The notes under the pieces were generated by a model that saw only the letters and a program-made list of their open reading frames with translations, did no database searches and had not been told where the DNA came from. DNA of 64,000 nt from Tenericutes bacterium ADurb.BinA124 (GTDB taxonomy: Bacteria; Bacillota_I; Bacilli_A; ML615J-28; CAG-698): assembly GCA_002068415.1 (NCBI GenBank), contig MVZM01000003.1:40306-104305 (forward strand), given 5' to 3'. Below, one piece after another: positions 2,860-61,018 of this stretch; positions within the stretch are counted from its first letter, which is position 1, and every line of letters starts with the position of its first letter. The position numbers and the translations under genes are program-made.

Positions 2860-3564
2860 CTATTCCTCAGCGCCTACAATATCAAATTTCATCTGAATCC
2901 TAATCATCCCCCCTAATATTGAATCGACACAATCCGGATCTTCACCTTCCAACCACATAATTACACTATATTTTTTATACATGTGGGGTCGGAGGTTGGC
3001 AATCTTTCCTCTCGTCACAATTTCATCATCGATGAAGTAATTAGCCTTCGGCATCTCTTTCGGGTAATCATAGGGAACCGTATCAGGCTTTTGATACAAA
3101 TACTCATCGGTATCATCTTCGATAATTAATATTCTAACGGCTTCATCAACATTTTTGTAAGTATCAGTTATTTTTAAATGATAACCAACATCCACGGTTT
3201 CACTGCCAATGTTCTTGACATAGAAGGTATAGGCAACATAACGATAATCTTCATCGATATAATCGCCATCCGTTGCTTTAATCTCCGATAGCTTTAACCA
3301 GGAATAAGTAATATCTTTCACATCGATAACGGGATTAGCTAACAATCTTGGGGAAGGAGCTAAGAATTTATCGTCACTAGAAAGGATGATGCCACGGGTG
3401 AATGAATCGGGGTCAATCGACATAACGAAGTTTCCGGCTTGTTGACCATAGAAGGTGATGATGGCAATGGCTATTGATAGAAACGCCGTAATCAGCAAAC
3501 CGATGGTCACAGCTGTTGTTCGGACAGCAAATTTTCTAACTCCAAGCATTTTGGAAAGCCGCAT
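2860..3564 (-). CDS. Paralog 4 (234 aa), first gene of the operon. Divergent N-terminus with a single TM anchor (TAVTIGLLITAFLSIAIAIITFY) instead of a cleavable SipW-type signal. Retains the family C-terminal block MWLEGEDPDCVDSI...IRIQMKF.
   Basis: ORF track. ATG at 3564 with SD AAAGGCGG. The C-terminal about 30 aa align to paralogs 2 and 3. Its position and membrane-anchored N-terminus suggest an anchoring or accessory subunit (TapA-like role, by analogy only). Confidence 0.5.
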   Translation of the reverse strand: MRLSKMLGVRKFAVRTTAVTIGLLITAFLSIAIAIITFYGQQAGNFVMSIDPDSFTRGIILSSDDKFLAPSPRLLANPVIDVKDITYSWLKLSEIKATDGDYIDEDYRYVAYTFYVKNIGSETVDVGYHLKITDTYKNVDEAVRILIIEDDTDEYLYQKPDTVPYDYPKEMPKANYFIDDEIVTRGKIANLRPHMYKKYSVIMWLEGEDPDCVDSILGGMIRIQMKFDIVGAEE

Positions 3565-3584: not shown

Positions 3585-3685
3585 TGGAAATAAAAAATAG
3601 CCAGTATCATTCTAATAATGACAACTGGCTACCATTTCAGGCCCTTTAGCTTTGCGTCCCTAGATTTCTCTAAGTTTGCCTTTTA
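3585..3685 (-). promoter_or_regulatory. c-di-GMP-I (GEMM) riboswitch, copy 1 (proximal to the operon), with a terminator-type expression platform.
   Basis: Minus-strand RNA: AAGGCAAACUUAGAGAAAUCUAGGGACGCAAAGCUAAAGGGCCUGAAAUGGUAGCCAGUUGUCAUUAUUAGAAUGAUACUGGCUAUUUUUUAUUU. The core GGCAAAC-N5-GAAA-N4-GGGACGCAAAGC matches the conserved GEMM-I aptamer (compare V. cholerae Vc2 GGCAAACCAUUCGAAAGAGUGGGACGCAAAGCC). It has a GNRA-capped P2 hairpin CUUAGA-GAAA-UCUAGG, then an 8-bp hairpin UAGCCAGU/ACUGGCUA followed by U6, which I read as an intrinsic terminator. Sits 20-30 nt upstream of the SD and ATG of the 2860..3564 gene. Confidence 0.8.
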
Positions 3686-3734
3686 CATATCTTCTTGATA
3701 AAAAGATAAATAAAACTTATTAAATTATATCCTT

Positions 3735-3835
3735 AAAGAAAGAAAAAAGCCAGTATCATTCTTACAATGACAACTGGCTACCATTTCAGGCCCTTTAGCT
3801 TTGCGTCCCTAGATTTCTCTAAGTTTGCCTTTGAA
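3735..3835 (-). promoter_or_regulatory. c-di-GMP-I (GEMM) riboswitch, copy 2 (distal). About 95% identical to copy 1 and also followed by a hairpin plus U-tract.
   Basis: Minus-strand RNA: AAAGGCAAACUUAGAGAAAUCUAGGGACGCAAAGCUAAAGGGCCUGAAAUGGUAGCCAGUUGUCAUUGUAAGAAUGAUACUGGCUUUUUUCUUUC. Same conserved core as copy 1. Tandem arrangement separated by about 65 nt. Confidence 0.8.
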
Positions 3836-3859
3836 CATTTTTCTATCTTAAGTGCCTCC

Positions 3860-3930: not shown

Positions 3931-5430
3931 TTATTTCTTTTTGTCAACACTTTCTTCCGGTTCTTTTAAAAGTTTTCCCTTCCAAGATTGACCTTCGATA
4001 TAGGATTTCAAATCATCACCTGACATCGGATAACCAAAATAATATCCTTGAACGACATTAATACCAAAATTGCTAACTTTCTCCAGCATTTCGTAATTCT
4101 CCACTCCTTCAGAAATAACAACCTTTTGGTTATTACGAGCAAAACCAACAAGCAGGGTGGCAAATTTTTCCGTCATATAGGACTCTTGCGTATCGCTTAA
4201 GAAAGACCGATCCAGTTTAATGATGTCAATCGGCATTTTTTCCAGTTTGGCAAGAGTTGCAAAATCCAGACCAAAGCCGTCAATAGCAATTTTAAAACCG
4301 ACATCTTTAAGTTTTTGAATATTCACCATAATTTCATCATAGCGCTCAAACAAGGCAAACTCCACAATTTCCAAAGTGATATTGGAAGCTTGTAAACGGT
4401 ATTTGCGTAAAATCTTCAAGAAATCAGCAACCAAAGTTAAAACAATCAATTGTTTAGGGCTCAGGTTTAAGGATAAGCGTAATTCTAGTTCCGGAAAATC
4501 TTTTTTAATTTCAAAGTATTGTTTAATGAGGTTTTCAATGCCCCATAAACCAACCCAATAAATATCCCCGGATTGCTCCATGATATTGATAAATTGGTGA
4601 GGAGACAAAACACCATGTTCCGGATGATTCCACCTTAATAAGGCTTCCGCCCCATATAAAGTTCCGTCATCGACATTGATAATAGGTTGATAATAAAGCA
4701 AAAACTCTTTATTCTTCATGGCTGTTTTAATTTGATAATAATAAGCCAAGTTTTCAAATTCCGTTTCATTGATGTCTTCGGAATAGAGCATGAAATCATT
4801 TCCGCCCTTTTTCTTCAACAAATAAATGGAAATCTTTAGAGAATTAATTAATTGTTTTAAACTACTTCCATGTTTGGGGTAAAAGCAGACCGCCACACAA
4901 GCCGTGGGGGTCACAAAGGTATCACTATAAATTTTAATCGGCGTGCGAACAACTTCTAACAGTTTCTTCGCCACTTCCAAACTTTGCAAGCGGTCATAAT
5001 CACCTTTTAAGAAAACCAAGAATTCATCACCGGTTAAGCGTGCCATTTGTACACGCTTCGGCAAAACATGGCTGAGGTTTTGGGCAATTTTCTCTAAAGC
5101 CCGTTCCGCTTCCTTTTCCCCAAAGGCATTGATAATATCGGTAAATTTATCAATATCGACATAAATGAGGGCGAAGGTCGTTTCCAACGAGCCCTTGGCA
5201 ATATAGCCGGAAATGGCACTCGTCAATTCGGACTTCGACAATAAGCCTTCTAACAAAACCGTCTTCTCTTCACGGAACTTAGCTCGTTCGCGAAAAACCG
5301 AGCGAATTAAAAAATATCCGAGCGTCGCCGTAACTGCGAGGGCAATGATCGAAAAAAAGATATAGGCACCATCATTAAAGTTGGCAAGAAACATGGGATC
5401 ACCTCTTGTATATTGTATCACAATCATCAA
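3931..5430 (-). CDS. Membrane-anchored GGDEF-EAL domain protein (499 aa) with non-canonical motifs: TGDEF instead of GG(D/E)EF; EAL present (EALLRW) but DGFGLD instead of DDFGTG.
   Basis: ORF track. N-terminal TM helix; RLTGDEFLVFL; YGAEALLRW. Likely a c-di-GMP phosphodiesterase or a degenerate receptor. Confidence 0.75.
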   Translation of the reverse strand: MMIVIQYTRGDPMFLANFNDGAYIFFSIIALAVTATLGYFLIRSVFRERAKFREEKTVLLEGLLSKSELTSAISGYIAKGSLETTFALIYVDIDKFTDIINAFGEKEAERALEKIAQNLSHVLPKRVQMARLTGDEFLVFLKGDYDRLQSLEVAKKLLEVVRTPIKIYSDTFVTPTACVAVCFYPKHGSSLKQLINSLKISIYLLKKKGGNDFMLYSEDINETEFENLAYYYQIKTAMKNKEFLLYYQPIINVDDGTLYGAEALLRWNHPEHGVLSPHQFINIMEQSGDIYWVGLWGIENLIKQYFEIKKDFPELELRLSLNLSPKQLIVLTLVADFLKILRKYRLQASNITLEIVEFALFERYDEIMVNIQKLKDVGFKIAIDGFGLDFATLAKLEKMPIDIIKLDRSFLSDTQESYMTEKFATLLVGFARNNQKVVISEGVENYEMLEKVSNFGINVVQGYYFGYPMSGDDLKSYIEGQSWKGKLLKEPEESVDKKK

Positions 5431-8191: not shown

Positions 8192-8265
8192 GCTCCTATA
8201 GTTTAGTGGTAAAACAAAGCAATGGTAATGCTTAGATCCAAGTTCGATTCTTAGTAGGAGCACCA
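8192..8265 (+). tRNA. tRNA-Thr (anticodon GGU)
   Basis: Hand-folded cloverleaf. Acceptor GCTCCTA/TAGGAGC (7 bp), D-stem GTTT/AAAC, anticodon stem AAGCA/TGCTT with loop AUGGUAA (anticodon GGU), T-loop TTCGATT, 3' ACCA. One C-A mismatch in the T-stem. Confidence 0.8.
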
Positions 8266-10551: not shown

Positions 10552-11829
10552 TTAGCTCCAAATGAACCAAAGCAATAAATAACCGGTGATAACTGCTGCC
10601 AAGGTGAAAGGAATTCCGATTTTAAAGAAATCGGAGTTTTTGACTTCATAACCTTCTTTCCGCAAAATCCCAATCCCGGCAATGTTGGCAGAAGCGCCAA
10701 TCGGTGTTAAGTTGCCACCTAAAGTAGCACCTACCAATAGGCCAAAGTATAAGATATAGGGCTCAATGCCAAGCTGTAAAGCGATGGCGGAAACCACGGG
10801 CAACATCGTTGCCACATAGGGAATATTATCAATGAAGGCGGAAAAGAGGACAGACGCCCATAAAATTAAGGTATAAATCAAGAATAAATTATTACCGCTG
10901 GCCTTCACAAACAATTGGCTAATTTTATCAATGACTCCGGCTTCAGTAATCCCACCAATCACAACAAATAAACCGATTAATAATAATAAGGTCGTATAAT
11001 CAATTTCTTTTAAAGCCTCCACAAAGGGTTTTATTTCTCTCTTCACAATTATTTTACGGGTAATCCCGACAATGAATAAGGAAACACAGATAATCCCGTT
11101 AATCAATCCTCCGGTTGCTGCGGAAAGTTTGGGGAAGAAAGAAGCAATAATCAACAACACAATCACACCAAGTAATAAAACAGTTGGAAAATAATCTTTA
11201 ACTTCGGTTTTTTGGACTTCTTCCACTTTAGCGGTTTCTTTTCGGAAAATCCAAAGTAAGATTAAAGCGGAAACCAAGGCTCCGGCTTGCACAACCCAGA
11301 AAATCCCAACCTTCCCTTTAAAAAAGAAAAAGTCTAAAAAGTTCATGTTCGCCTCACCACCCAACAAAATGGAGGTAGTGTCACCAACCAAGGTGGCAGC
11401 GCCTTGCAAATTAGAGGATACGGCAATGGCAATAACCATGCCCACCGGCGAAATCTCTAATTTCTTGGCAATGTTTAATGCGACCGGAGCAATCATTAAG
11501 ACTGTAGCCACATTGTCAATAAAGGCGGAGATTAAGCCCGCAAAGAGCGCTAAAATAAAAATCGTCCATTTAACATTCGGCATTTTCGCAATAATAAAAT
11601 CCGCCAGCCGCGAGGGCATTTTCGATTCTATAAACAATCCCACAACGCCCATCGTCCCAAAGATCATCATAATGACATTCCAATCAATGGCTCCCAAAAC
11701 TTTATTAAGGGGAATAATTCCTAAAATAATAAACACCGCCGCCGAAGTAAGGGCCACATAAGCGCGGTATTTAGGAAGGGCCAACAATAACACATAAGTA
11801 CATGCAAATAAGATTAGCGCTAAAACCAT
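10552..11829 (-). CDS. ArsB/NhaD-superfamily anion permease (425 aa, polytopic)
   Basis: ORF track. Motifs IDNVATVLMIAP and AFIDNIPYVATMLPV are typical of the ArsB/NhaD/CitMHS ion-transporter superfamily. Assignment within the superfamily is uncertain. Confidence 0.55.
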   Translation of the reverse strand: MVLALILFACTYVLLLALPKYRAYVALTSAAVFIILGIIPLNKVLGAIDWNVIMMIFGTMGVVGLFIESKMPSRLADFIIAKMPNVKWTIFILALFAGLISAFIDNVATVLMIAPVALNIAKKLEISPVGMVIAIAVSSNLQGAATLVGDTTSILLGGEANMNFLDFFFFKGKVGIFWVVQAGALVSALILLWIFRKETAKVEEVQKTEVKDYFPTVLLLGVIVLLIIASFFPKLSAATGGLINGIICVSLFIVGITRKIIVKREIKPFVEALKEIDYTTLLLLIGLFVVIGGITEAGVIDKISQLFVKASGNNLFLIYTLILWASVLFSAFIDNIPYVATMLPVVSAIALQLGIEPYILYFGLLVGATLGGNLTPIGASANIAGIGILRKEGYEVKNSDFFKIGIPFTLAAVITGYLLLWFIWS

Positions 11830-11873
11830 TCTGTCACCTCATAAAAACTGTTCTTATTGTAACATAAAGCCCT
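11824..11873. repeat. Left copy of a 49-bp direct repeat (AACCATTCTGTCACCTCATAAAAACTGTTCTTATTGTAACATAAAGCCC). Includes the start codon and RBS of the permease gene.
   Basis: Matches 13963..14012 with 2 mismatches and a 1-nt indel. Found by eye. Confidence 0.85.
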
Positions 11874-12112
11874 TTAAACTGCAACCATTGGTCTTTAGAA
11901 TCCACCTTAGAAGCTACAAAAATGGCATTTTAGAACTTACATATGATTGTTTACAAGGCTAAATTAATTAGCCAAGCATGTTAAAGAGATACTTAAGAGA
12001 ACCAAAACAAGTGAAATCTTTGAATAATAACCAATGGTTTTATTAAAATGAAAAACTATGCAAATAATAAAAACAATTTGATTCGGATAGACAAATTTAA
12101 TAACAATATGAC

Positions 12113-12160
12113 AAAACCCACCGCATGTAAAGTTGCAGTGGGTTTGATCATTTTATAGTT
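12113..12160 (-). terminator. Probable terminator downstream of the SDH-protease gene (CCCACCGCA...TGCAGTGGG hairpin followed by a U-rich tract on the minus strand).
   Basis: Imperfect 9-bp stem plus TTTTGT. Moderate quality. Confidence 0.4.
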
Positions 12161-12246
12161 TATTATAAAAATTAGTGCTTTTTGACCATAAAACCACAAA
12201 TTTTTAAAGAAGTTAATTGTCACACAACAATATTGTAAATATTTGA

Positions 12247-13122
12247 TTAAATTTGACGAATCAGAGCTCTTCCTTCTTGGTTTTCAATTAATTTAATTGC
12301 TCTTGTAGATGAAATGGTAATTGTGGAAGCATGATAGATGCTCAACACTAAATCTTGTAATATCGCGTCATCTTCTAAACGAACAATTTTTAATCCCATA
12401 TCTATACAATATTGCAACGAAAAATGTCTAGCATGGGATTTGGCATTCATATTTAATTTTTTTACAATTTCTTTGATGATGTTAGTCTTGTTTTCGTCTT
12501 TAAACATATACTTTTCTAACCATTCTTGTACAAGAATTTTTGAAAGTTTCATAGCATCAAACACTCGATATAAAAAAGCTGCGGGGTATTTCGACAACAA
12601 TTGACGCCAATATTCAGAAGACTGAGGATTATCAGTTAACTCTTTTTTGGCATTCTTAAATTCCTCTATGATGTTGAAGGCAGGTATGCCACCAAATTGA
12701 GGATCAACGGGACCTAAGCAGGATTGCTTTCCCATTATTATTTCCTTCGCAGCACAAGCGAACATTGTCCCTGCTGACATTGCCATATGGGGAACAATTA
12801 CCCTAACATCATTATTAAACACCGAATGCAAATAATTAACAATGTGTTCTGTTGCTGTAGGATCACCACCGGGTGAATGTAAAATAATATCTACACCTTG
12901 ACTTTTATTCAATTTATTGACAGTTGTCATAAAACCAGGCATATCCAAATCGGTAATATCCGTTCCTGGCATTTGCGGTTTTTCTAGCCATCCAGAATAA
13001 TATAGGATGGTGTTTCGCCCCGTGTGATTAGATAGTTTTTTTAAGTAAGTTCTTCTAACCAAGTCAACATTATTATTATTTGTTTTTATCTCTTCAAGTA
13101 TTTCATTCCATGACCCCATCAA
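12247..13122 (-). CDS. SDH-family (S49-like, ClpP-fold) serine protease, 291 aa
   Basis: ILHSPGGD...MAMSAGTMFA is the ClpP/SppA-type Gly-Gly-Asp ... Ser-Ala-Gly catalytic neighbourhood. The size matches the serine-dehydrogenase-proteinase family. No signal peptide. Confidence 0.6.
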   Translation of the reverse strand: MMGSWNEILEEIKTNNNNVDLVRRTYLKKLSNHTGRNTILYYSGWLEKPQMPGTDITDLDMPGFMTTVNKLNKSQGVDIILHSPGGDPTATEHIVNYLHSVFNNDVRVIVPHMAMSAGTMFACAAKEIIMGKQSCLGPVDPQFGGIPAFNIIEEFKNAKKELTDNPQSSEYWRQLLSKYPAAFLYRVFDAMKLSKILVQEWLEKYMFKDENKTNIIKEIVKKLNMNAKSHARHFSLQYCIDMGLKIVRLEDDAILQDLVLSIYHASTITISSTRAIKLIENQEGRALIRQI

Positions 13123-13307
13123 ATGCCTCCTTCAATTACCTGTGTTGAAGAAGAAAAAGTCATTTTTAACGATTGGTCTTTACCAGTATGGAGTTTATTT
13201 GGTAATACATATGAACCAATAAAATCAACATCTTTATTATTTATTTTTAAATCATCTAAAATTTTAATTATTTCTTCAATAGTTAATTCTTTATTTGTTT
13301 TTTTCAT
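13119..13307 (-). CDS. Small hypothetical protein (62 aa), translationally coupled to the protease by an ATGA overlap.
   Basis: Strong RBS AAGGAGA 7 nt upstream of the ATG at 13307 (MKKTNKELTIEEIIKILDDLK...). The track ORF begins 16 codons earlier without an RBS. 4-nt overlap with the protease start. Confidence 0.5.
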   Translation of the reverse strand: MKKTNKELTIEEIIKILDDLKINNKDVDFIGSYVLPNKLHTGKDQSLKMTFSSSTQVIEGGI

Positions 13308-13545
13308 TTTCTTTCTCCTTGTCGATTTAAAGTAAAACAACTTATATGGTTGCAAATAATTGTTTTATTTGATTTTGTTATAATAATAATATATCAAAAA
13401 AAAGGGCTTGTCAAATATTAGTTTTTGAAAAAATTATTAGTGCAAATATCAACTTAAAATTGACCACCCTCACCAATTAATAGTCAAATGCTTATCTTTT
13501 TTAGTATAATAATTACATTTATCATTAGGGGAAGAAATAATAATT

Positions 13546-13929
13546 TATGAATCTGATGATGGAGCAACTCATATTGAAGTAAAGTTGGAAGATGATAATA
13601 TTTGGTTAACTCAGCAACAAATGGCTGAACTTTTTAGCACTTCTAGGCCCAATGTAGTTATTCACATCGGAAATATCTATTCTGAGGGGGAACTTGATAA
13701 AATTTCAACCTATAAGAATTTTAAACAGCTTCGAAAAGAAGAAAATAGAATGGTTGAAAAGGAGATACCTTTTTATAATTTTGATATGATTATTTCTCTG
13801 GGATATAGAATTAAATCATCTTTAGCCATTAGATTTAGAATATGGGCAACTGAAAAACTTAAAGAATATATGATTAAAGGTTTTACAATGGCATCTTCAG
13901 CAGAAATTATCATTAATTCACTAATGTAA
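13546..13929 (+). pseudogene. Truncated RhuM-family (virulence protein RhuM-like) gene fragment. Corresponds to residues about 20-135 of the intact paralog at 28012..28725. Unrelated C-terminal tail.
   Basis: MNLMMGATHIEVKLEDDNIWLTQQQMAELF...MIISLGYRIKSSLAIRFRIWATEKLKEYMIKGFTM aligns almost residue-for-residue with the 237-aa protein at 28012..28725 and then diverges and terminates. Confidence 0.7.
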
Positions 13930-13962
13930 TAGCTCGGTATTTTTTCGATAGTGTTAATTAAT

Positions 13963-14012
13963 CAACCATTCTGTCACCTCATAAAAACTCTTCTTGTTGT
14001 AACATAAAAGCC
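13963..14012. repeat. Right copy of the 49-bp direct repeat flanking the roughly 2.1 kb islet.
   Basis: AACCATTCTGTCACCTCATAAAAACTCTTCTTGTTGTAACATAAAAGCCC. Confidence 0.85.
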
Positions 14013-14043
14013 CCCATAATATCAATCATTTTGGGGGCTTTAT
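14008..14043. terminator. Bidirectional terminator hairpin (AAAGCCCCCA...TGGGGGCTTT) downstream of the ABC exporter operon.
   Basis: 9-bp G/C-rich stem with flanking A and T runs. Confidence 0.7.
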
Positions 14044-14047
14044 CATT

Positions 14048-14902
14048 TTATGATTTTTTAGTGCGGAGACGAAGGATGGAAATTCCGTAAAACAGAATCC
14101 CCATAACTACTAAAAACATGATGGCAAATAGCGGAGTAACTTGCCAATTCCCAATTTTAATCACCACTCCCATTTCAAGGGCAAATCTGGACATTTCGGC
14201 TTCCGGGGCTTGCGCAAACACTTCGCCCATCGGTTCTTTCATAATGATGGTGCGGAATAAGGCCACCGAATAGGTCCCCGGAAAAACTTTCATTAGTTTT
14301 TGAATAAAATCCGGTAAGGCCCCAACAGGAACATAAATGCCCATTAAAAACCCAATAATCGTTCCAATGATAATGGACAAGGTCGAAAAAGCATTTTGAG
14401 TACGAATAAAGGAAATGACTAAAAACAAGATGGCGGAATTTGCAAAAGTCGATAAAACAATCACACCGAAGACTTTTAATAAATCAAATAAACTTAAAAG
14501 CTCGCCACCATTGATGATGATATACAGTTCACCAAACACCAGAGCCAAACAAGACATGATAGTCCCGATGACAAACGAACTGATTAAATAACCGCCAATG
14601 AGCGTTGATTTCTTGATTGGCGACGAATAAAAATCCTTAACGATGTTTTTGGAATAATCCTCAACAATAACTCCTAAAGCTCCCAAGGTTGATGTCACAC
14701 TGGAAGCGGCTACTAAACCCGCTACAATCCAGCTATCCATTAAAAACCTTACTCCCGTAACTCCCCCTTCCCAGTTAGACATCATGTCCCCTAAGAAAAG
14801 CACATATAAACTCATAATAATAATGACACTTAAAGACGAGAAAAAAACGGAGGTTTTATCTCGAAAGAACAAACGGATATTTCGTTTCGCAATATTAATC
14901 AT
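14048..14902 (-). CDS. ABC-2 type transporter permease (284 aa, 6 TM)
   Basis: ORF track. Polytopic. 8-nt overlap with the upstream ATPase gene. Confidence 0.7.
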   Translation of the reverse strand: MINIAKRNIRLFFRDKTSVFFSSLSVIIIMSLYVLFLGDMMSNWEGGVTGVRFLMDSWIVAGLVAASSVTSTLGALGVIVEDYSKNIVKDFYSSPIKKSTLIGGYLISSFVIGTIMSCLALVFGELYIIINGGELLSLFDLLKVFGVIVLSTFANSAILFLVISFIRTQNAFSTLSIIIGTIIGFLMGIYVPVGALPDFIQKLMKVFPGTYSVALFRTIIMKEPMGEVFAQAPEAEMSRFALEMGVVIKIGNWQVTPLFAIMFLVVMGILFYGISILRLRTKKS

Positions 14903-26314: not shown

Positions 26315-26434
26315 TTATATATTAATTATTGAGAAATACAAGTTAAAATTTTTATTTTTTTAAATTAATTTACATAGAAAAAAGCCAGTAAAACTGACCT
26401 ATTGATTTTGGGGTCACCTTAAAGGGATTAACTT

Positions 26435-26545
26435 TTTTTACCTCACAATTTATTAGATTGTGAATGTTGTTTAAACACAAGGGGTGATCAATTTCAAATC
26501 ACTGTTTTCTTTAAAATCTGGTCAATTTCAATTTACTATAAACAG
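26435..26545. repeat. About 110-bp direct repeat, copy 1 (contains two GGTCAATTTCAA motifs and the palindrome GTGATCAATTTCAAATCAC).
   Basis: About 85% identical to 27609..27720. Confidence 0.8.
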
Positions 26546-27100
26546 ATCTTTTACAATATCTTCAGGACAAGTAATCTCATTTCCTTTTAACGCTAAATCT
26601 AATACTTTTTCTTTATTATGATTTCCTTGATAAAGTAGCAATCTTTCATAGAGAGAAGTATTTACCTGACGCTTTAGTTCTCGAACAGACCATTTAGAAT
26701 TTATACTTTCTTTTTCATAGAAACTTCTTTTATTTTCATCACTTATGCTAAGAAGTTCGTAATAATGAGACCAAGACAATTTGCCAAACAGTGTCTGGCT
26801 TTATGGATAAGTAAGAAATAACTTCCTCATGTTTTGTAAATTTGACCTTGAAAATCTTTTACCAAACTCTTTGTTAAGTTCCTTTAAGAGGTCTTTAATC
26901 AAAGCCTGACCATATTCTACTCTGTCCAAGTGATTTTGTTCGTCTTCCACAATAGTTCTTCCTATTTCCCAATATACTTTGACTAAAGTGGTGTTCACAG
27001 TTTGAGATAGCTCTCGTCTAGCTTGGAGCATTATTCCTTTTATATTTTTAAAAACAGTGTTTTTGTCTTGATTTATCAAATTGCTCATATCCATCTGCAA
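26528..27100 (-). pseudogene. Frameshifted and truncated YhcG/DUF1016-family (PDDEXK nuclease) gene. Only the N-terminal about 190 aa, split over the track ORFs 26801..27100 and 26528..26779.
   Basis: LVKVYWEIGRTIVEDEQNHLDRVEYGQALIKDLLKELNKEFGKRFSRSNLQNMRKLFLTYP and SWSHYYELLSISDENKRSFYEKESINSKWSVRELKRQVNTSLYERLLL match the YhcG N-terminal domain. The nuclease domain is absent. Confidence 0.65.
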
Positions 27101-27555
27101 ATGTCAACTTGAAATTGACCACCTAGCGGTTTAACCACTCCTTGTTTAAGAAATTTATTATGTCCCCACGGTATTCTTAGTATTGGTGTTTCAAATTCCA
27201 CCCCAGCTTGGGGTAAATTCAGCACATTTGGATATAATTCGTAAAACCAAACCATATAGCGTAAATTTGTGACCGAAAACGACTTTACATCCAGCAGAAG
27301 TTCTGTTAAATCCTTACTGACATTATTATAAAAATCAGTACCATAGAGTGATGTTCTATTCATCGATGCAATATCTCTGCCGAGTATCCAATAAAACTGA
27401 AGCATTTGGTCGTTCACTTTAACAGCCACTTTTAATTGGCTTTTTCTAAATGCCTTGCTGATGGATTGAATCCATCCACGATAATATTCATCCTTCTTTA
27501 TCAATTCACTTACGAATCTACCTCCAAGCATTTTAACTTTTCTATGAAATCGCAC
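27085..27555 (-). pseudogene. Second, divergent YhcG/DUF1016 N-terminal fragment (156 aa)
   Basis: KVAVKVNDQMLQFYWILGRDIA...NLRYMVWFYELYP...IPWGHN follows the DUF1016 N-terminal domain pattern. No nuclease domain. Confidence 0.5.
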
Positions 27556-27608
27556 TTAATTCAACTTCTCTACAATCTCAAACCAGTAATAATTTTCTTT
27601 CTACTCCC

Positions 27609-27720
27609 TTTTACCTCACATTCTATTAGATTATGAGTGTCGTTTAACACAAAGGGTGGTCAATTTCAAATTGCTGTTTTCCTTAAAATCTAGTCAATTT
27701 CAGTTTACTATAAACAATTA
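27609..27720. repeat. About 110-bp direct repeat, copy 2.
   Basis: See copy 1. A partial inverted copy (GGTGGTCAATTTCAAGTTGACA) also lies at 27095..27125, and another partial copy (GGTGGTCAATTTTAAGTTGA, reverse complement) at 13445..13470 inside the islet. Confidence 0.75.
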
Positions 27721-27986
27721 TCATTATTTTTTACTTTATTATCTATTGTTTTAATAGTCTTTAAATATTCTTTCTCAACTTTTGTTAAAGTTTTAACTTG
27801 GTATTTTTTATATTCATCTCTTGCCTTTTCTATTGCTTGTTCATGAGAAATTGTTCCCGCATTTGCTAATATTTCTTCTCCAGCAGTGGAAAGAATTGAG
27901 TCTAAATATTTAATATGATCTTTCATATATATAGGTTTTTTTCTTATGGCATTTATCTCAGCGAAATCAAAATAACCTGAAACCAT
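27708..27986 (-). CDS. Hypothetical protein (92 aa), no recognisable domain
   Basis: ORF track only. The gene is adjacent to the RhuM gene in the same orientation. Confidence 0.3.
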   Translation of the reverse strand: MVSGYFDFAEINAIRKKPIYMKDHIKYLDSILSTAGEEILANAGTISHEQAIEKARDEYKKYQVKTLTKVEKEYLKTIKTIDNKVKNNDNCL

Positions 27987-28011
27987 ATTATTTAAAACTT
28001 TTAGTTCTTCT

Positions 28012-28725
28012 TCAGTTAAATAATTTTTGGCAATACCAATTATCCTTCATTCTTGGAAGTTCACCCTCAAAATTAGTAAGTCCCATAAAAGGTTTATTTG
28101 CATCTACACGATGATATATTATTTCGGCAGCAGTATTTCCATGGACAGCAAAGTGTAATTTATTTTGAACAATTTTAAAAAATTCAAATGTTTCTTCTGC
28201 TTCAGAATCGTAATCAATGCTAGTGGTATATAAGTCTAAAACTTGACGATATATAACCTTTTCAGAAGAACGAATATCACGAATTCTATCAATTAGTTCT
28301 TTCCAATAACTTCCCCCACCAAGCTCTTTAAGTCTTTTATCATCCATAGTAAAGCCTTTTATCATATATTCTTTTAATCGTTCTGTTGCCCAAATTCTAA
28401 ATCTAGTAGCAATAGATGACTTTATTCGATATCCTAGTGAAATTATCATATCTAAATTATAATAAGGCATTTTTCTTTGAACCTCTCTATTTCCCTCTTT
28501 TCGAACTTGTCGGAATTTCCGACAGGTTGAGTTTTCTAATAATTCTCCCTCACTATATATATTTTTAATATGTTCATTAACATTTGTTCGAGAACTATCA
28601 AAAAGTTCAGCCATTTGTTGCTGAGTTAACCAAATATTATCATCTTCAAGTTTTACTTCTATATTAGTTAAACCATCTTCAGTCTTGTAAATTATTATTT
28701 CACCTTTATCATTTTTTACTGACAT
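28012..28725 (-). CDS. RhuM-family protein (virulence protein RhuM-like), 237 aa, intact
   Basis: Family-typical IWLTQQQMAELF...NEHIKNIYSEGEL...MIISLGYRIKS...RFRIWAT. It is the full-length paralog of the fragment at 13546..13929. Confidence 0.65.
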   Translation of the reverse strand: MSVKNDKGEIIIYKTEDGLTNIEVKLEDDNIWLTQQQMAELFDSSRTNVNEHIKNIYSEGELLENSTCRKFRQVRKEGNREVQRKMPYYNLDMIISLGYRIKSSIATRFRIWATERLKEYMIKGFTMDDKRLKELGGGSYWKELIDRIRDIRSSEKVIYRQVLDLYTTSIDYDSEAEETFEFFKIVQNKLHFAVHGNTAAEIIYHRVDANKPFMGLTNFEGELPRMKDNWYCQKLFN

Positions 28726-29030
28726 AAGATATCTCCTTCTATAATTTATTATGATATTAAGTTTTAATGTTATTTCTTGTATATTTTAGCATAAATCTAT
28801 CGTCAAATAAAGTCATTTTATAAGATAAAAGCAATTATATTTTGATCAGTTCAAACTTCTAAAAGATAAAAGCAAATATATCAGTTCGAACTCTTGAACC
28901 AATAATACACAAGATCATTGCACAAAAAAACCGCTATAAGTTAAGATTTGAACTTATAACAGTTTGTATATTAATTAGTTTATTTAGCTTTATAGAGCAT
29001 TTTTTTCATTAAACTAACTTAACATTTCCT

Positions 29031-29105
29031 TGGAGCAGGTAGCGAGAATCGAACTCGTATCTTCGCCTTGGGAAGGCGACATAATAACCATTATACGATA
29101 CCTGC
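29031..29105 (-). tRNA. tRNA-Gly (anticodon CCC)
   Basis: Minus-strand cloverleaf GCAGGTA-TC-GTATAATGGTTATTATG-TCGCC-TTCCCAA-GGCGA-AGAT-ACGAG-TTCGATT-CTCGC-TACCTGC-T-CCA. Acceptor and anticodon stems are perfect. The D-stem is short and wobbly, and there is one A-C mismatch in the T-stem. The track ORF 29030..29284 (+) is antisense to it. Confidence 0.7.
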
Positions 29106-58231: not shown

Positions 58232-61018
58232 ATGAAAAAAAGATTATTAATGATGTTTTTACTGCTGCTTTTGATAATCCCCATCAGCATCGCCGCCGCC
58301 GAAACTAATGTTTCCACCCTCAAAATCCATTATTATCGCTATGGAAACGATTATGATAGGGGTTGGAATATCTGGCTTTGGCCCTTTGGAAGCGAAGGTG
58401 AGCAGATTGATTTTGATAAAAACGAGGGTGTATTTGTACAAGATGACTGGGGAGTGGTGGCAACCGTTGATTTAAGCGCCACCAAGTATCGCAACATCAC
58501 CCAAATCGGTATCATTTTTCGCAGGGGTGCTTGGGCGGAAAAAGATATTGATTTCGACCGCTATATTCAAATACCGACGACAGCCGAAAACGGCCTTTTA
58601 AATGTTTATTTTGTGGAAGGAGATGAAAGAATGGGGTATTCACCAACAGACCAAAGCGGTCCTGACCGCTCCGATAAAATTAAAGCCGCTTTTTTCACAA
58701 ACACCGCCGAAATTGCTTATCAGCTAACAGCACCCTTGAAAGCCGCTGATTTATCATTATATGAAGATGATGTTTTGTTAGCAGCAAGCATTTCACCAAT
58801 GGCCAATACCGGAAAAATTACCTTAACAAAAAACCTTGATTTTTCCAAAAAATATGTGTTAAAAGCCCAATTTCCTTCCGGTCTTAAAAGCTATGATGTC
58901 ACCTTTGACGGTATTTATGACTCCGAGGCTTTTGAAGCCGCCTTTGCTTATGATGGCAATGACCTTGGTGCCCTTGTTACGGGGAATGTAACTAATTTTC
59001 GTTTGTGGGCACCGATTTCCTCAGCTGTAAGCCTTAATTTATATGAAACGGGAACTCCGGCGGCCTTAGGCGGAAGTGATACCAAAATCGCCACTTATCC
59101 AATGACCAAAGATGTTAAAGGCACCTGGAAATATGCCGCCAATCAAAACCTGCATGGCAAATATTATACTTATTCGGTGACCAACGGTTCAAGAACTTTT
59201 GAAACAATTGACCCCTATGCCAAGAGTGCGGGCGTAAACGGCTTAAGAGGCATGGTAGTCGACTTTCCTAAAACCAACCCCACCGGTTTTAAATACCACG
59301 AGCGGCCTAATAATATTGAAAATGCCACCGATGCAATTATTTATGAACTGCATGTGCGCGACTTAACATCCCATTCCAGTTGGAATGGGCCCAAGGAACA
59401 TGCCGGCAAATTCCTCGGTCTAATTGACGAAGGCACTACTTATCAAGGCATCACCACCGGCTTTGACCATATTAAAGAATTAGGCGTAACCCATGTTCAA
59501 CTACTACCCTTCTTTGATTTTGGGGTCGTTGATGAAACAAAACTGAATGAGCCGAAATACCAAGCTAAAGGAATTTTTAACTGGGGCTATATGCCGCTTA
59601 ACTTCAATGTTCCTGAAGGTTCTTATTCTTCCGATCCTTATGACGGCACGAAACGCATCACGGAGTTAAAACAAGTTACTACGGCCTTTACCAAAAATAA
59701 CATCGGTTTAATCATGGATGTGGTTTATAATCATACCGGTTTAAGCGCCGATTCCAATTTTCACTTAATCCTTCCGGGTTATTTCCACCGCCTAACCCCA
59801 ACGGGGGTCTTTTCCAATGGGTCAGGAACCGGTAACGAAACCGCTTCGGAACGCTATATGGTGCGCAAATTTATTGTCGATTCCACCGTTTTTTGGGCCA
59901 CGGAATATAATATTTCCGGATTCCGTTTTGACTTGATGGCTTTACACGATGTGGAAACCATGAAGGCCGTTGTCAGCGCCTTGAAAGCGATTGATCAAAA
60001 CATCTTAATCTACGGTGAACCGTGGAATGGGGGAGCGACCCCGCTTCCTCCTAGCATGGCAGCGGATAAAGTCAATCTCGCCAAGATGCCCGAGGTCGGA
60101 GCTTTCAACGACGAAATCCGCGACGGCATTAGAGGGTCCGTCTTTACCACAGCGGAAGGCGGTTTTGTACAAGGGGGAACTTCACCAAAAATCATGAACC
60201 GCACCAAATACGGTGTTGTTGGTGGTGTGGCTTACCCAGGGCTGGATTTAAAAGATCTTTCTTACCAAACTGTTTGGCATACCCAGCCAAGCAAAACCAT
60301 CAACTATGTCAGCGCCCACGACAATAATACTTTGTACGACAAATTGCGTTTATCCACCACCTATCAACAAAAACAATATCTTGACGAAATGCAAAAACAG
60401 GCCAACGCCATTGTCCTAACTTCACAAGGTGTTCCCTTCCTTCATGCGGGAGTTGAATTTCTACGTTCCAAACCGGATGGCAGCGGCGGTTATGATCACA
60501 ATTCTTATGAGTCGCCGGACAGCGTCAACCAACTCCGTTGGGATTTAAAAGCGGAAGCGTTAAATATGTCAGTCTTTACTTATTACAAAGGATTGATTGC
60601 CTTACGAAAGGCCCATCCGGCCTTCCGAATGGCGACGGCCAAAGAAGTAATTGCTAATGTGAAATTTGTTTATGAAGACAAACCGGGAATTTTGGCCTAC
60701 ACCATTGCCAATTATGCCAATAACGATTCTTGGGGGACGATTCTCGTCATTCATAACAACGGCAATTTCATCCAACTAAAACTGCCCGAAGGTGAAGAAA
60801 CTTGGAATTTAGTCGCCAACGGCAGCCAAGTTGGTGAGGAAACTATTAAATCCTATGCCGGGGGTGCGACCATCAGCGTCCTCGAACATGAAAGCTTAAT
60901 TTTGTATCAAGGCTACCGTGCCAAACCGACGAAACGCGGTTGCTTTGGGGGAGCGGCGATAATGCCTTTAGCCCTCCTCGGTTTAGGTGTTTTGATACTT
61001 AAAAAACGAAAACATTAA
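58232..61018 (+). CDS. pulA: Type I pullulanase (GH13_14) with signal peptide, N-terminal CBM41-like domain and C-terminal GC-TM-KKRKH tail. 928 aa.
   Basis: Signal MKKRLLMMFLLLLLIIPISIAAA. GH13 regions YNHTG, GFRFDLMA, GEPWN, YVSAHDN. Pullulanase-type architecture. Confidence 0.85.
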   Translation: MKKRLLMMFLLLLLIIPISIAAAETNVSTLKIHYYRYGNDYDRGWNIWLWPFGSEGEQIDFDKNEGVFVQDDWGVVATVDLSATKYRNITQIGIIFRRGAWAEKDIDFDRYIQIPTTAENGLLNVYFVEGDERMGYSPTDQSGPDRSDKIKAAFFTNTAEIAYQLTAPLKAADLSLYEDDVLLAASISPMANTGKITLTKNLDFSKKYVLKAQFPSGLKSYDVTFDGIYDSEAFEAAFAYDGNDLGALVTGNVTNFRLWAPISSAVSLNLYETGTPAALGGSDTKIATYPMTKDVKGTWKYAANQNLHGKYYTYSVTNGSRTFETIDPYAKSAGVNGLRGMVVDFPKTNPTGFKYHERPNNIENATDAIIYELHVRDLTSHSSWNGPKEHAGKFLGLIDEGTTYQGITTGFDHIKELGVTHVQLLPFFDFGVVDETKLNEPKYQAKGIFNWGYMPLNFNVPEGSYSSDPYDGTKRITELKQVTTAFTKNNIGLIMDVVYNHTGLSADSNFHLILPGYFHRLTPTGVFSNGSGTGNETASERYMVRKFIVDSTVFWATEYNISGFRFDLMALHDVETMKAVVSALKAIDQNILIYGEPWNGGATPLPPSMAADKVNLAKMPEVGAFNDEIRDGIRGSVFTTAEGGFVQGGTSPKIMNRTKYGVVGGVAYPGLDLKDLSYQTVWHTQPSKTINYVSAHDNNTLYDKLRLSTTYQQKQYLDEMQKQANAIVLTSQGVPFLHAGVEFLRSKPDGSGGYDHNSYESPDSVNQLRWDLKAEALNMSVFTYYKGLIALRKAHPAFRMATAKEVIANVKFVYEDKPGILAYTIANYANNDSWGTILVIHNNGNFIQLKLPEGEETWNLVANGSQVGEETIKSYAGGATISVLEHESLILYQGYRAKPTKRGCFGGAAIMPLALLGLGVLILKKRKH

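Follow-up and report, generated by a model that had tools for sequence, protein, structure and literature searches.

A chromosomal islet of Tenericutes bacterium ADurb.BinA124 was analyzed within a window of 64,000 nucleotides (contig MVZM01000003.1 of assembly GCA_002068415.1, positions 40,306 to 104,305 of the forward strand; "the window" denotes this whole stretch, and all coordinates refer to it). The islet comprises ~2.09 kb of DNA between two direct repeats, DR-L (11824..11873) and DR-R (13964..14013), and separates two minus-strand genes. Downstream of the insertion site lies the intact gene of a CitMHS/SLC13-type permease (10552..11829, 425 aa), and on the other side the ABC-2 exporter permease gene (14048..14902, 284 aa), which was its upstream neighbour in the ancestral arrangement. 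The exporter operon ends in an intrinsic terminator, also on the minus strand (14007..14041; hairpin dG -17.8 kcal/mol, z -3.7).

On the minus strand DR-L reads AAGGGCTTTATGTTACAATAAGAACAGTTTTTATGAGGTGACAGAATGGTT and holds an extended -10 box (TGTTACAAT), the ribosome binding site (RBS) GAGGTGA and the first permease codons ATG GTT; on the plus strand the start codon appears as CAT at 11827-11829, accompanied by the RBS (AGGTGA) and the extended -10 box. DR-R is the same sequence with two substitutions and one indel, and its -10 box is degraded to TGTTACAAC. A repeat finder aligned 11824-11868 with 13964-14008 without gaps at 43 of 45 identical positions, and local alignment over 50 columns gave 94% identity with one 1-nt indel. 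The repeat spans from the 3' half of the terminator stem over the -10 box, the leader and the RBS to ATG GTT (permease codons 1-2), and the relic ATG GTT of DR-R reads on into GAT TAA. The original prediction had recognized both repeats and had correctly placed the RBS and start codon of the permease in the left one. Its right copy (13963..14012), however, starts one position later, at 13964, and the exporter terminator, which was said to follow this copy immediately, is indeed located there but is not simply adjacent, as DR-R overlaps the 3' half of its stem.

That the repeat is due to chance, belongs to a generic intergenic type or stems from a chimeric assembly, any of which would remove the need for a discrete insertion, has hardly any probability at all. 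Only the AT-rich context speaks for it, whereas a degenerate 45-mer of the repeat matches the 64-kb window at exactly these two positions, shuffled sequence giving an expectation of 0.00, and the homologous sequence in relatives is a locus-specific promoter region and not a generic element. The same structure was recovered in independent assemblies: positions 11400-14500 are 100% identical in nine contigs from different samples and assemblers, so that the arrangement is not an assembly artefact. A further similarity of 26 nt (81%) between 12140-12165 and 14035-14060 was considered and set aside as marginal and probably due to chance, 4 of 500 shuffles reaching its score. Both of these segments flank terminators; their likeness probably reflects convergence and could be the trace of a longer original duplication.

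The open reading frames (ORFs) between the repeats are a serine protease gene of the SDH-type ClpP fold (12247..13119, minus strand, 290 aa, PF01972), a coupled ORF of 62 aa (orf62; 13119..13307, minus strand), a fragment of rhuM and spurious small ORFs; transfer genes are absent. This is the cargo that had been read from the sequence at the outset, including the absence of an integrase: none of the ORFs between the repeats encodes an integrase or another recombinase, and integrase and rve probes matched nothing. The remainder consists of a left arm (11874..12225), which is non-coding apart from spurious ORFs of at most 55 aa and which now supplies the sequence upstream of the permease -10 box, and a right arm of 73 nt (13891..13963) between the rhuM breakpoint and DR-R. 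For neither arm was a homolog detected in the fetched loci or in phage and plasmid records. When the whole islet was compared by blastn with phage and plasmid records, only the rhuM part gave matches, and Rfam yielded no match in this islet or in a second one described below (26315-29030).

The rhuM pseudogene (13528..13890) is encoded on the plus strand. The open frame begins at 13528 with GEEIIIY, lacks a start codon and runs to a stop at 13929, while homology breaks after KGFTM at about 13890. The fragment corresponds to approximately the first 125 of roughly 330 residues and covers positions 1-63 of 252 of the RhuM profile (PF13310). Its N-terminal ~105 residues match the PADLOC candidates PDC-S05 and PDC-S23 with E = 1e-41 to 1e-44. 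In contrast to a functional RhuM, the islet copy retains about a third of the protein and has no start codon, and hence is a pseudogene that cannot function as RhuM; the truncation had been predicted, and the missing start adds to it. Homologs of the fragment do not exceed 76% aa identity, and no parental element could be traced through rhuM.

In composition the islet deviates strongly from its surroundings. Its GC content is 29.8% compared to 38.6% for the window. At third codon positions (GC3) the protease gene has 29% GC, the rhuM fragment 21% and orf62 just 11%, whereas the flanking genes, 41 in number, average 38.8 +/- 3.9% GC3 and 39.6 +/- 2.3% GC overall. The comparison of GC and codon usage proposed together with the original prediction thus sets the islet clearly apart from its flanks.

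For the comparison with related genomes, which had been proposed as well, a homology search with the permease returned relatives at 85-88% and at 74-75% identity. Contigs were retrieved for P0243 (88%), P0245 (87%), P0246 (86%) and P0250 (74%), giving the loci L115, L117 and L118-L120 with a permease of 86-88% identity and L121-L123 with one of 74%. A scan of species-representative genomes with the permease, in which all matches listed were at or below 74% identity, contributed L022 as a further 74% relative, the only syntenic locus among those matches. In five related lineages (three at 86-88% and two at 74% permease identity) the spacer between the ABC-2 gene and the permease gene measures just 81-88 nt and contains a single copy homologous to the repeat. 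Synteny is kept throughout: GGDEF/HD, a 182-aa protein, ABC ATPase, ABC-2, CitMHS permease, ferritin, P-II, Na/H exchanger and GGDEF/EAL. The exporter was therefore the original neighbour of the permease, as had been presumed, and the relatives do not share the islet arrangement.

In the spacer of the relatives the ABC-2 stop codon is followed by the terminator hairpin with a TTGAAT -35 box in its loop, the extended -10 box, the leader and the start codon. The extended -10 box (TGTTACAAT or TGTTAAAAT) directly follows the stem, and a leader of ~30 nt leads to GAGGTGA and ATG. Alignment of the right junction (ABC-2 end, terminator and DR-R) and of the left junction (DR-L and permease) rebuilds precisely this single-copy spacer, which shows the right copy to be a duplicated promoter-proximal remnant, as suggested, and the islet to be an insertion in the lineage of the window. 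Judged by its absence from this site in relatives and by its deviant composition, the DNA between the repeats is foreign and horizontally acquired.

The reverse history, in which the islet is ancestral and was lost from the relatives by recombination between the repeats, is very unlikely. A deletion between direct repeats would indeed leave the single-copy site that the relatives show. Nevertheless, several independent and precise losses would be needed in the three lineages at 86-88% and the two at 74%, compared to one gain, and the repeats themselves would still require an insertion. Furthermore, GC and GC3 of the islet are far below those of core genes, and the nearest relatives of its protease cassette (see below) are found in other contexts and in phages.

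The insertion also bears on the expression of the permease. In the window the loop of the exporter terminator carries TTGATA, the ancestral permease -35 box, at the position of TTGAAT in the relatives. The permease now keeps the -10 box, RBS and start of DR-L, and its -35 box TTGATA is replaced by TTGCAG from the islet. From this comparison it follows that the -35 region would have been swapped for islet sequence with -10 box, RBS and start being retained. Islet transcription itself may be kept away from the permease by a predicted intrinsic terminator of the protease operon (12114..12145, minus strand), which has a 12-bp stem followed by UUUUGUCAU (dG -25.5 kcal/mol, z -6.3) and would insulate the permease.

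Differences between the two repeats were then compared with the relatives. The -10 box is the conserved TACAAT in DR-L and TACAAC in DR-R. At a G/C site DR-L has C and DR-R agrees with the three closest relatives in having G, and no difference occurs in the 26 nt nearest to the permease. Each copy consequently carries one derived state (-10 T>C in DR-R, G>C in DR-L), and the differences cannot be sorted into one "chromosomal" and one "foreign" half. In the alignment both copies furthermore share a leader gap of 11-12 nt relative to L115, L117 and L118, which indicates that both stem from the own sequence of the window's lineage. Altogether the pattern fits two initially identical copies that later drifted, the disused DR-R having lost the invariant -10 T.

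As to how such a duplication arose, an ordinary transposition by a DDE transposon or insertion sequence can be dismissed: terminal inverted repeats were not found (best local score 13 versus a shuffle mean of 14.9), no transposase is present, and the duplication measures 50 bp, compared to 2-14 bp for such elements. A decayed integrative element is favoured by a rhuM that lacks its start and its 3' part, by arms that could not be assigned, and by the occurrence of the protease cassette in phages or satellites. We consider it probable, with moderate confidence, that the islet is an integrase-less remnant, flanked by attachment (att) sites, of a prophage- or satellite-type integrative element that was inserted at this locus, similar to a cis-mobilizable element (CIME). 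The repeats, the empty sites, the foreign composition, the mosaic structure, the phage association of the cassette and the absence of an integrase and of terminal inverted repeats are observed, whereas how the DNA recombined, that an integrase was once present and what the cargo does are inferred. Foreign DNA would have entered the 80-90-nt exporter-permease spacer in the window's lineage only, duplicating a 50-bp target, and the integrative element would have recombined via an identity of ~50 bp between attP and attB. Internal deletions may then have removed the integrase and most of the element, one deletion ending inside rhuM, and the insertion would have become fixed in a clonal population. 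The surviving part would be a self-contained moron consisting of promoter, orf62, coupled SDH protease and strong terminator, with the permease using the -10 box, RBS and start of DR-L, and DR-R persisting as a disused relic with a decayed -10 box.

CIMEs keep their att sites and have lost integration and transfer genes (PMC6323972, PMC5704250). The islet is likewise small, bounded by direct repeats of the target and devoid of integrase and transfer genes, carries accessory cargo and pseudogene debris, and adjoins the end of a gene for which the repeat restores the regulatory and start region. It differs in that the att role of its repeats, which have diverged at three positions, is putative and that there is no known cognate integrative and conjugative element (ICE), integrative and mobilizable element (IME) or phage at the site. 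Moreover, the relatives of its cargo reside in prophages and satellite-like elements and not in ICEs, and its target is a promoter and 5' end, the usual targets being a tRNA gene or the 3' end of a gene. With these reservations, the islet is best filed beside CIME-like decayed integrative elements that carry a prophage moron.

Several observations weigh against the decayed-element interpretation. Neither an integrase, an integrase fragment nor a cognate element using the site was found, and no intact relative of the whole islet turned up. The left arm, the cassette and the rhuM fragment differ in their homology relationships, so that a single parental element is an assumption. The mixture of ancestral and derived repeat states fits a plain duplication of resident sequence equally well as an identity of attP and attB. 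All available contigs of the species are identical and give no sign of excision or mobility, and the exact empty junction (GGGGGCTTTTATGTTACAAYAAGAASAGTTTTTATGAGGTGACAGAATGGTTTTAGCGC) had 0 matches in the metagenome contig collection.

In an alternative model without any integrase, a small circle bearing the 50-bp segment would have been integrated by a RecA-dependent single (Campbell-type) crossover. The circle could have come from an imprecise excision at the locus of a sister strain or from a recircularised transduced or transformed molecule. Both repeats carry the lineage-specific 11-12-nt gap and one derived substitution each, as expected of resident-type sequence, no integrase or remnant of one was found, and the insert with one repeat amounts to just 2.14 kb. 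This model, on the other hand, still needs an earlier event that joined foreign DNA to the exact 50-bp segment, and the decay of a larger element is suggested by the unassigned arms and by a rhuM that is truncated and has no start. A length of 50 bp is, in addition, near the lower limit for efficient homologous recombination, which counts against a crossover. We regard it as possible but doubtful, and clearly less probable than a decayed integrative element.

Finally, the islet might still be mobile as a non-autonomous element, that is, a true CIME or satellite relying on a recombinase supplied in trans, either from another part of the genome or from a phage or ICE that enters the cell and uses the same site. 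The repeats are 94% identical with a perfect block of 26 nt beside the permease, and the architecture matches the definition of a CIME (PMC6323972, PMC5704250). We nonetheless judge continued mobility to be unlikely. An exact-pattern search of the metagenome collection gave no empty junction, the nine full-length contigs from different samples show no variation, and the repeats have already diverged at three positions. Two probe proteins detected no recombinase in the 64-kb window, which is a weak test. An excised circle would join the right arm to the left arm through one repeat and read GTGTTAATTAATC-[50-mer]-TTTAAACTGCAACC. The 50-mer repeat core was not found in the viral contig collection by exact pattern, by which a diverged attP would be missed; it is also absent from all fetched loci, and no other species showed the occupied site. 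Exact-protein look-ups with the permease, the protease and the ABC-2 protein likewise returned this species alone, with the islet always present and 100% identical. A second metagenome scan with the ABC-2 protein gave just relatives at 40% identity in which the permease is absent.

The nearest DNA relatives of the insert, the three loci L110-L112, match it at 80-84% nt identity, and only from 12226 to 13433, which covers the promoter, orf62, the protease and ~20 nt; the flanks are unrelated on both sides. This 1.2-kb block of the minus strand (12226..13433) is consequently a discrete cassette, and the different genes that flank it in L110 and L111 indicate that it moves independently of its neighbours. 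In L111 a partial ORF of 168 aa without Pfam match (1569-2072) lies downstream of the cassette homolog, and in L110 a hydrophobic ORF of 82 aa (134-382) lies upstream. By its sequence relationships the islet is thus a mosaic of the left arm with the terminator, the 1.2-kb cassette, the rhuM pseudogene and the short right arm.

The protease scores 81.1 bits against PF01972 (gathering threshold 31.3), with only ~95 residues aligned; this core includes the motif AMSAG with the Ser nucleophile. Against the NCBIfam equivalog NF047768 it reaches 90.9 bits, below the cut-off of 250, while it matches phrog_11747 from end to end (E = 3e-91). Its nearest sequence neighbours are annotated as "SDH family Clp fold serine proteinase", and a sequence search returned no relative in the PDB. 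With the SDH-type ClpP-fold serine proteinases (PF01972; NF047768) it shares the Pfam core and the AMSAG motif; compared to this group in general, the clade of the islet protease is phage-associated, and in part of the family the protease is coupled to a small upstream ORF.

In the islet the protease start codon overlaps the stop codon of orf62 by one base (TGATG), and a GGAGG RBS is located inside the 3' end of orf62. This ORF matches no known family and is 76-77% identical (aa) in L110 and L111. Compared to L110, the protease has a dN/dS of 0.07 and orf62 one of 0.25; for orf62 the values are 0.25-0.44 with L110 and L111 and range between 0.14 and 0.44 over the comparisons. By these ratios protease and orf62 look like maintained genes under purifying selection. 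A sigma-70-like promoter is predicted upstream of the operon (13386..13414, minus strand; TTGACA-17-TATTAT, 11 of 12 positions), and in the window the terminator described above lies 100 nt downstream. As far as such predicted signals allow, the cassette is probably still expressed.

Homologs of the protease are numerous (3,403 proteins at E <= 1e-10) and are associated with phages. In an Acholeplasma-type prophage (L099-L103) a homolog of 57% identity lies between portal and terminase and is encoded on the opposite strand. In VapE-primase elements (L104-L109) a homolog occupies an accessory region beside NTase/HEPN genes and upstream of the repressor, and in L109 an integrase lies directly upstream of this region. 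Further homologs were found in 7 GenBank phages (including Porphyromonas, Shewanella and Gordonia phages) and in 21 IMG/VR contigs. Among viral contigs, L132, L134-L136 and L139-L144 carry homologs of 42-50% identity, with the gene at about position 5001. In these viral homologs an ORF of 58-87 aa, often with a Ser/Thr-rich C-terminal tail, ends at the protease start or up to ~15 nt upstream of it. The small ORFs upstream of the distant viral homologs gave no convincing alignment with orf62. In the P0033 and P0035 clades, which are closer homologs, no upstream ORF is present, and 62-aa ORFs downstream of the P0033-clade proteases were rejected as orf62 homologs at 22% identity.

A prophage moron is an autonomous accessory transcription unit, with promoter, gene or genes and terminator, inserted between phage genes. 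The cassette likewise has its own predicted promoter and terminator and a deviant composition and recurs in different contexts, and its homologs sit between portal and terminase or between integrase and repressor in prophage-like elements. In contrast to a moron in its phage, the islet cassette sits in the chromosome without any remaining phage genes.

With respect to the cargo, neither the protease nor orf62 matched any family of PADLOC-DB 2.0 at E <= 0.1; only the truncated rhuM did. Literature searches on PF01972, "serine dehydrogenase proteinase", and RhuM together with defence returned nothing relevant. A defence role of the islet cargo, as raised in the original prediction, is unproven in view of these searches: PADLOC has no model for either cassette gene, and the sole part that resembles candidate systems is the dead rhuM fragment, whose N-terminus matches the RhuM family (PF13310) and PDC-S05/PDC-S23. 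As a speculative suggestion, which we hold to be rather improbable, the promoter-orf62-SDH unit might be an undescribed two-gene module of phage exclusion or abortive infection, in which orf62 with its Ser/Thr-rich tail would serve the protease as inhibitor, substrate or sensor. If so, prophages, satellites and hot spots of the chromosome would exchange it as a 1.2-kb cassette, whose benefit to the host would keep the islet in place.

Elsewhere in the window a second low-GC islet (29% GC) extends over 26315-29030, directly downstream of the gene of tRNA-Gly(CCC) (29031-29105, minus strand). Its rhuM gene is split by a frameshift or stop (28725-28012 and 27986-27708) and is accompanied by three DUF1016_N fragments (27555-27085, 27100-26801 and 26779-26528). 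Neither an integrase ORF nor a repeat of the tRNA 3' end was seen in it. The two rhuM copies are 77% nt-identical (13534-13891 = 28701-28344), the similarity ending at the same KGFTM point. The second islet also contains a direct repeat of ~110 bp (26436-26544 and 27609-27716, 81-89% identical), whose copies start precisely at the 3' ends of rhuM and of the last DUF1016 fragment. It has two GTCAATTTCA boxes ~32 nt apart and stops in all frames, shows no significant RNA fold and no Rfam match, and may represent the scar of a recombination or insertion event or else a small repeat element.

Both islets share a motif of 21 nt, which reads AGGGTGGTCAATTTTAAGTTG on the minus strand at 13450..13470. 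Written as AGGGTGGTCAATTTCAAATTG, it has three sites within three mismatches, at 13450-13470 (minus), 27105-27125 (minus) and 27653-27673 (plus), compared to 0.02 expected, and a weaker fourth site is found at about 26481-26501 (plus). The copy of the first islet is located 17 nt beyond the end of the cassette homology, and the two copies of the second islet form an inverted pair around a DUF1016 fragment.

Further features of the window are two tandem c-di-GMP-I riboswitch aptamers (3617-3690 and 3766-3839, minus strand; 64 and 60 bits) upstream of an ORF of 234 aa without Pfam match (2860-3564), in a region rich in GGDEF/EAL/HD-GYP genes. The strand bias of the window is extreme: leaving aside short ORFs nested antisense in longer genes, only two ORFs of 110 aa or more do not lie on the minus strand, namely the rhuM fragment (13528-13929) and an ORF at 58232-61018; the tRNA-Thr gene (8192-8265) is on the plus strand as well.

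Taken together, the islet provides a small and clean example of how an uncultured Acholeplasmatales-like bacterium (Bacilli/Tenericutes) of anaerobic digesters, as judged by the source names of P0001, P0241 and P0250, would have gained and then eroded phage-type DNA. Owing to the 50-bp duplication, the permease would have exchanged its -35 region without losing its -10 box, RBS or start codon. The islet itself matters little beyond this genome, and the wider lead is the orf62-SDH cassette. Since the SDH-protease family is large, phage-associated, under purifying selection and absent from defence catalogues, it would be a reasonable candidate for functional screens.

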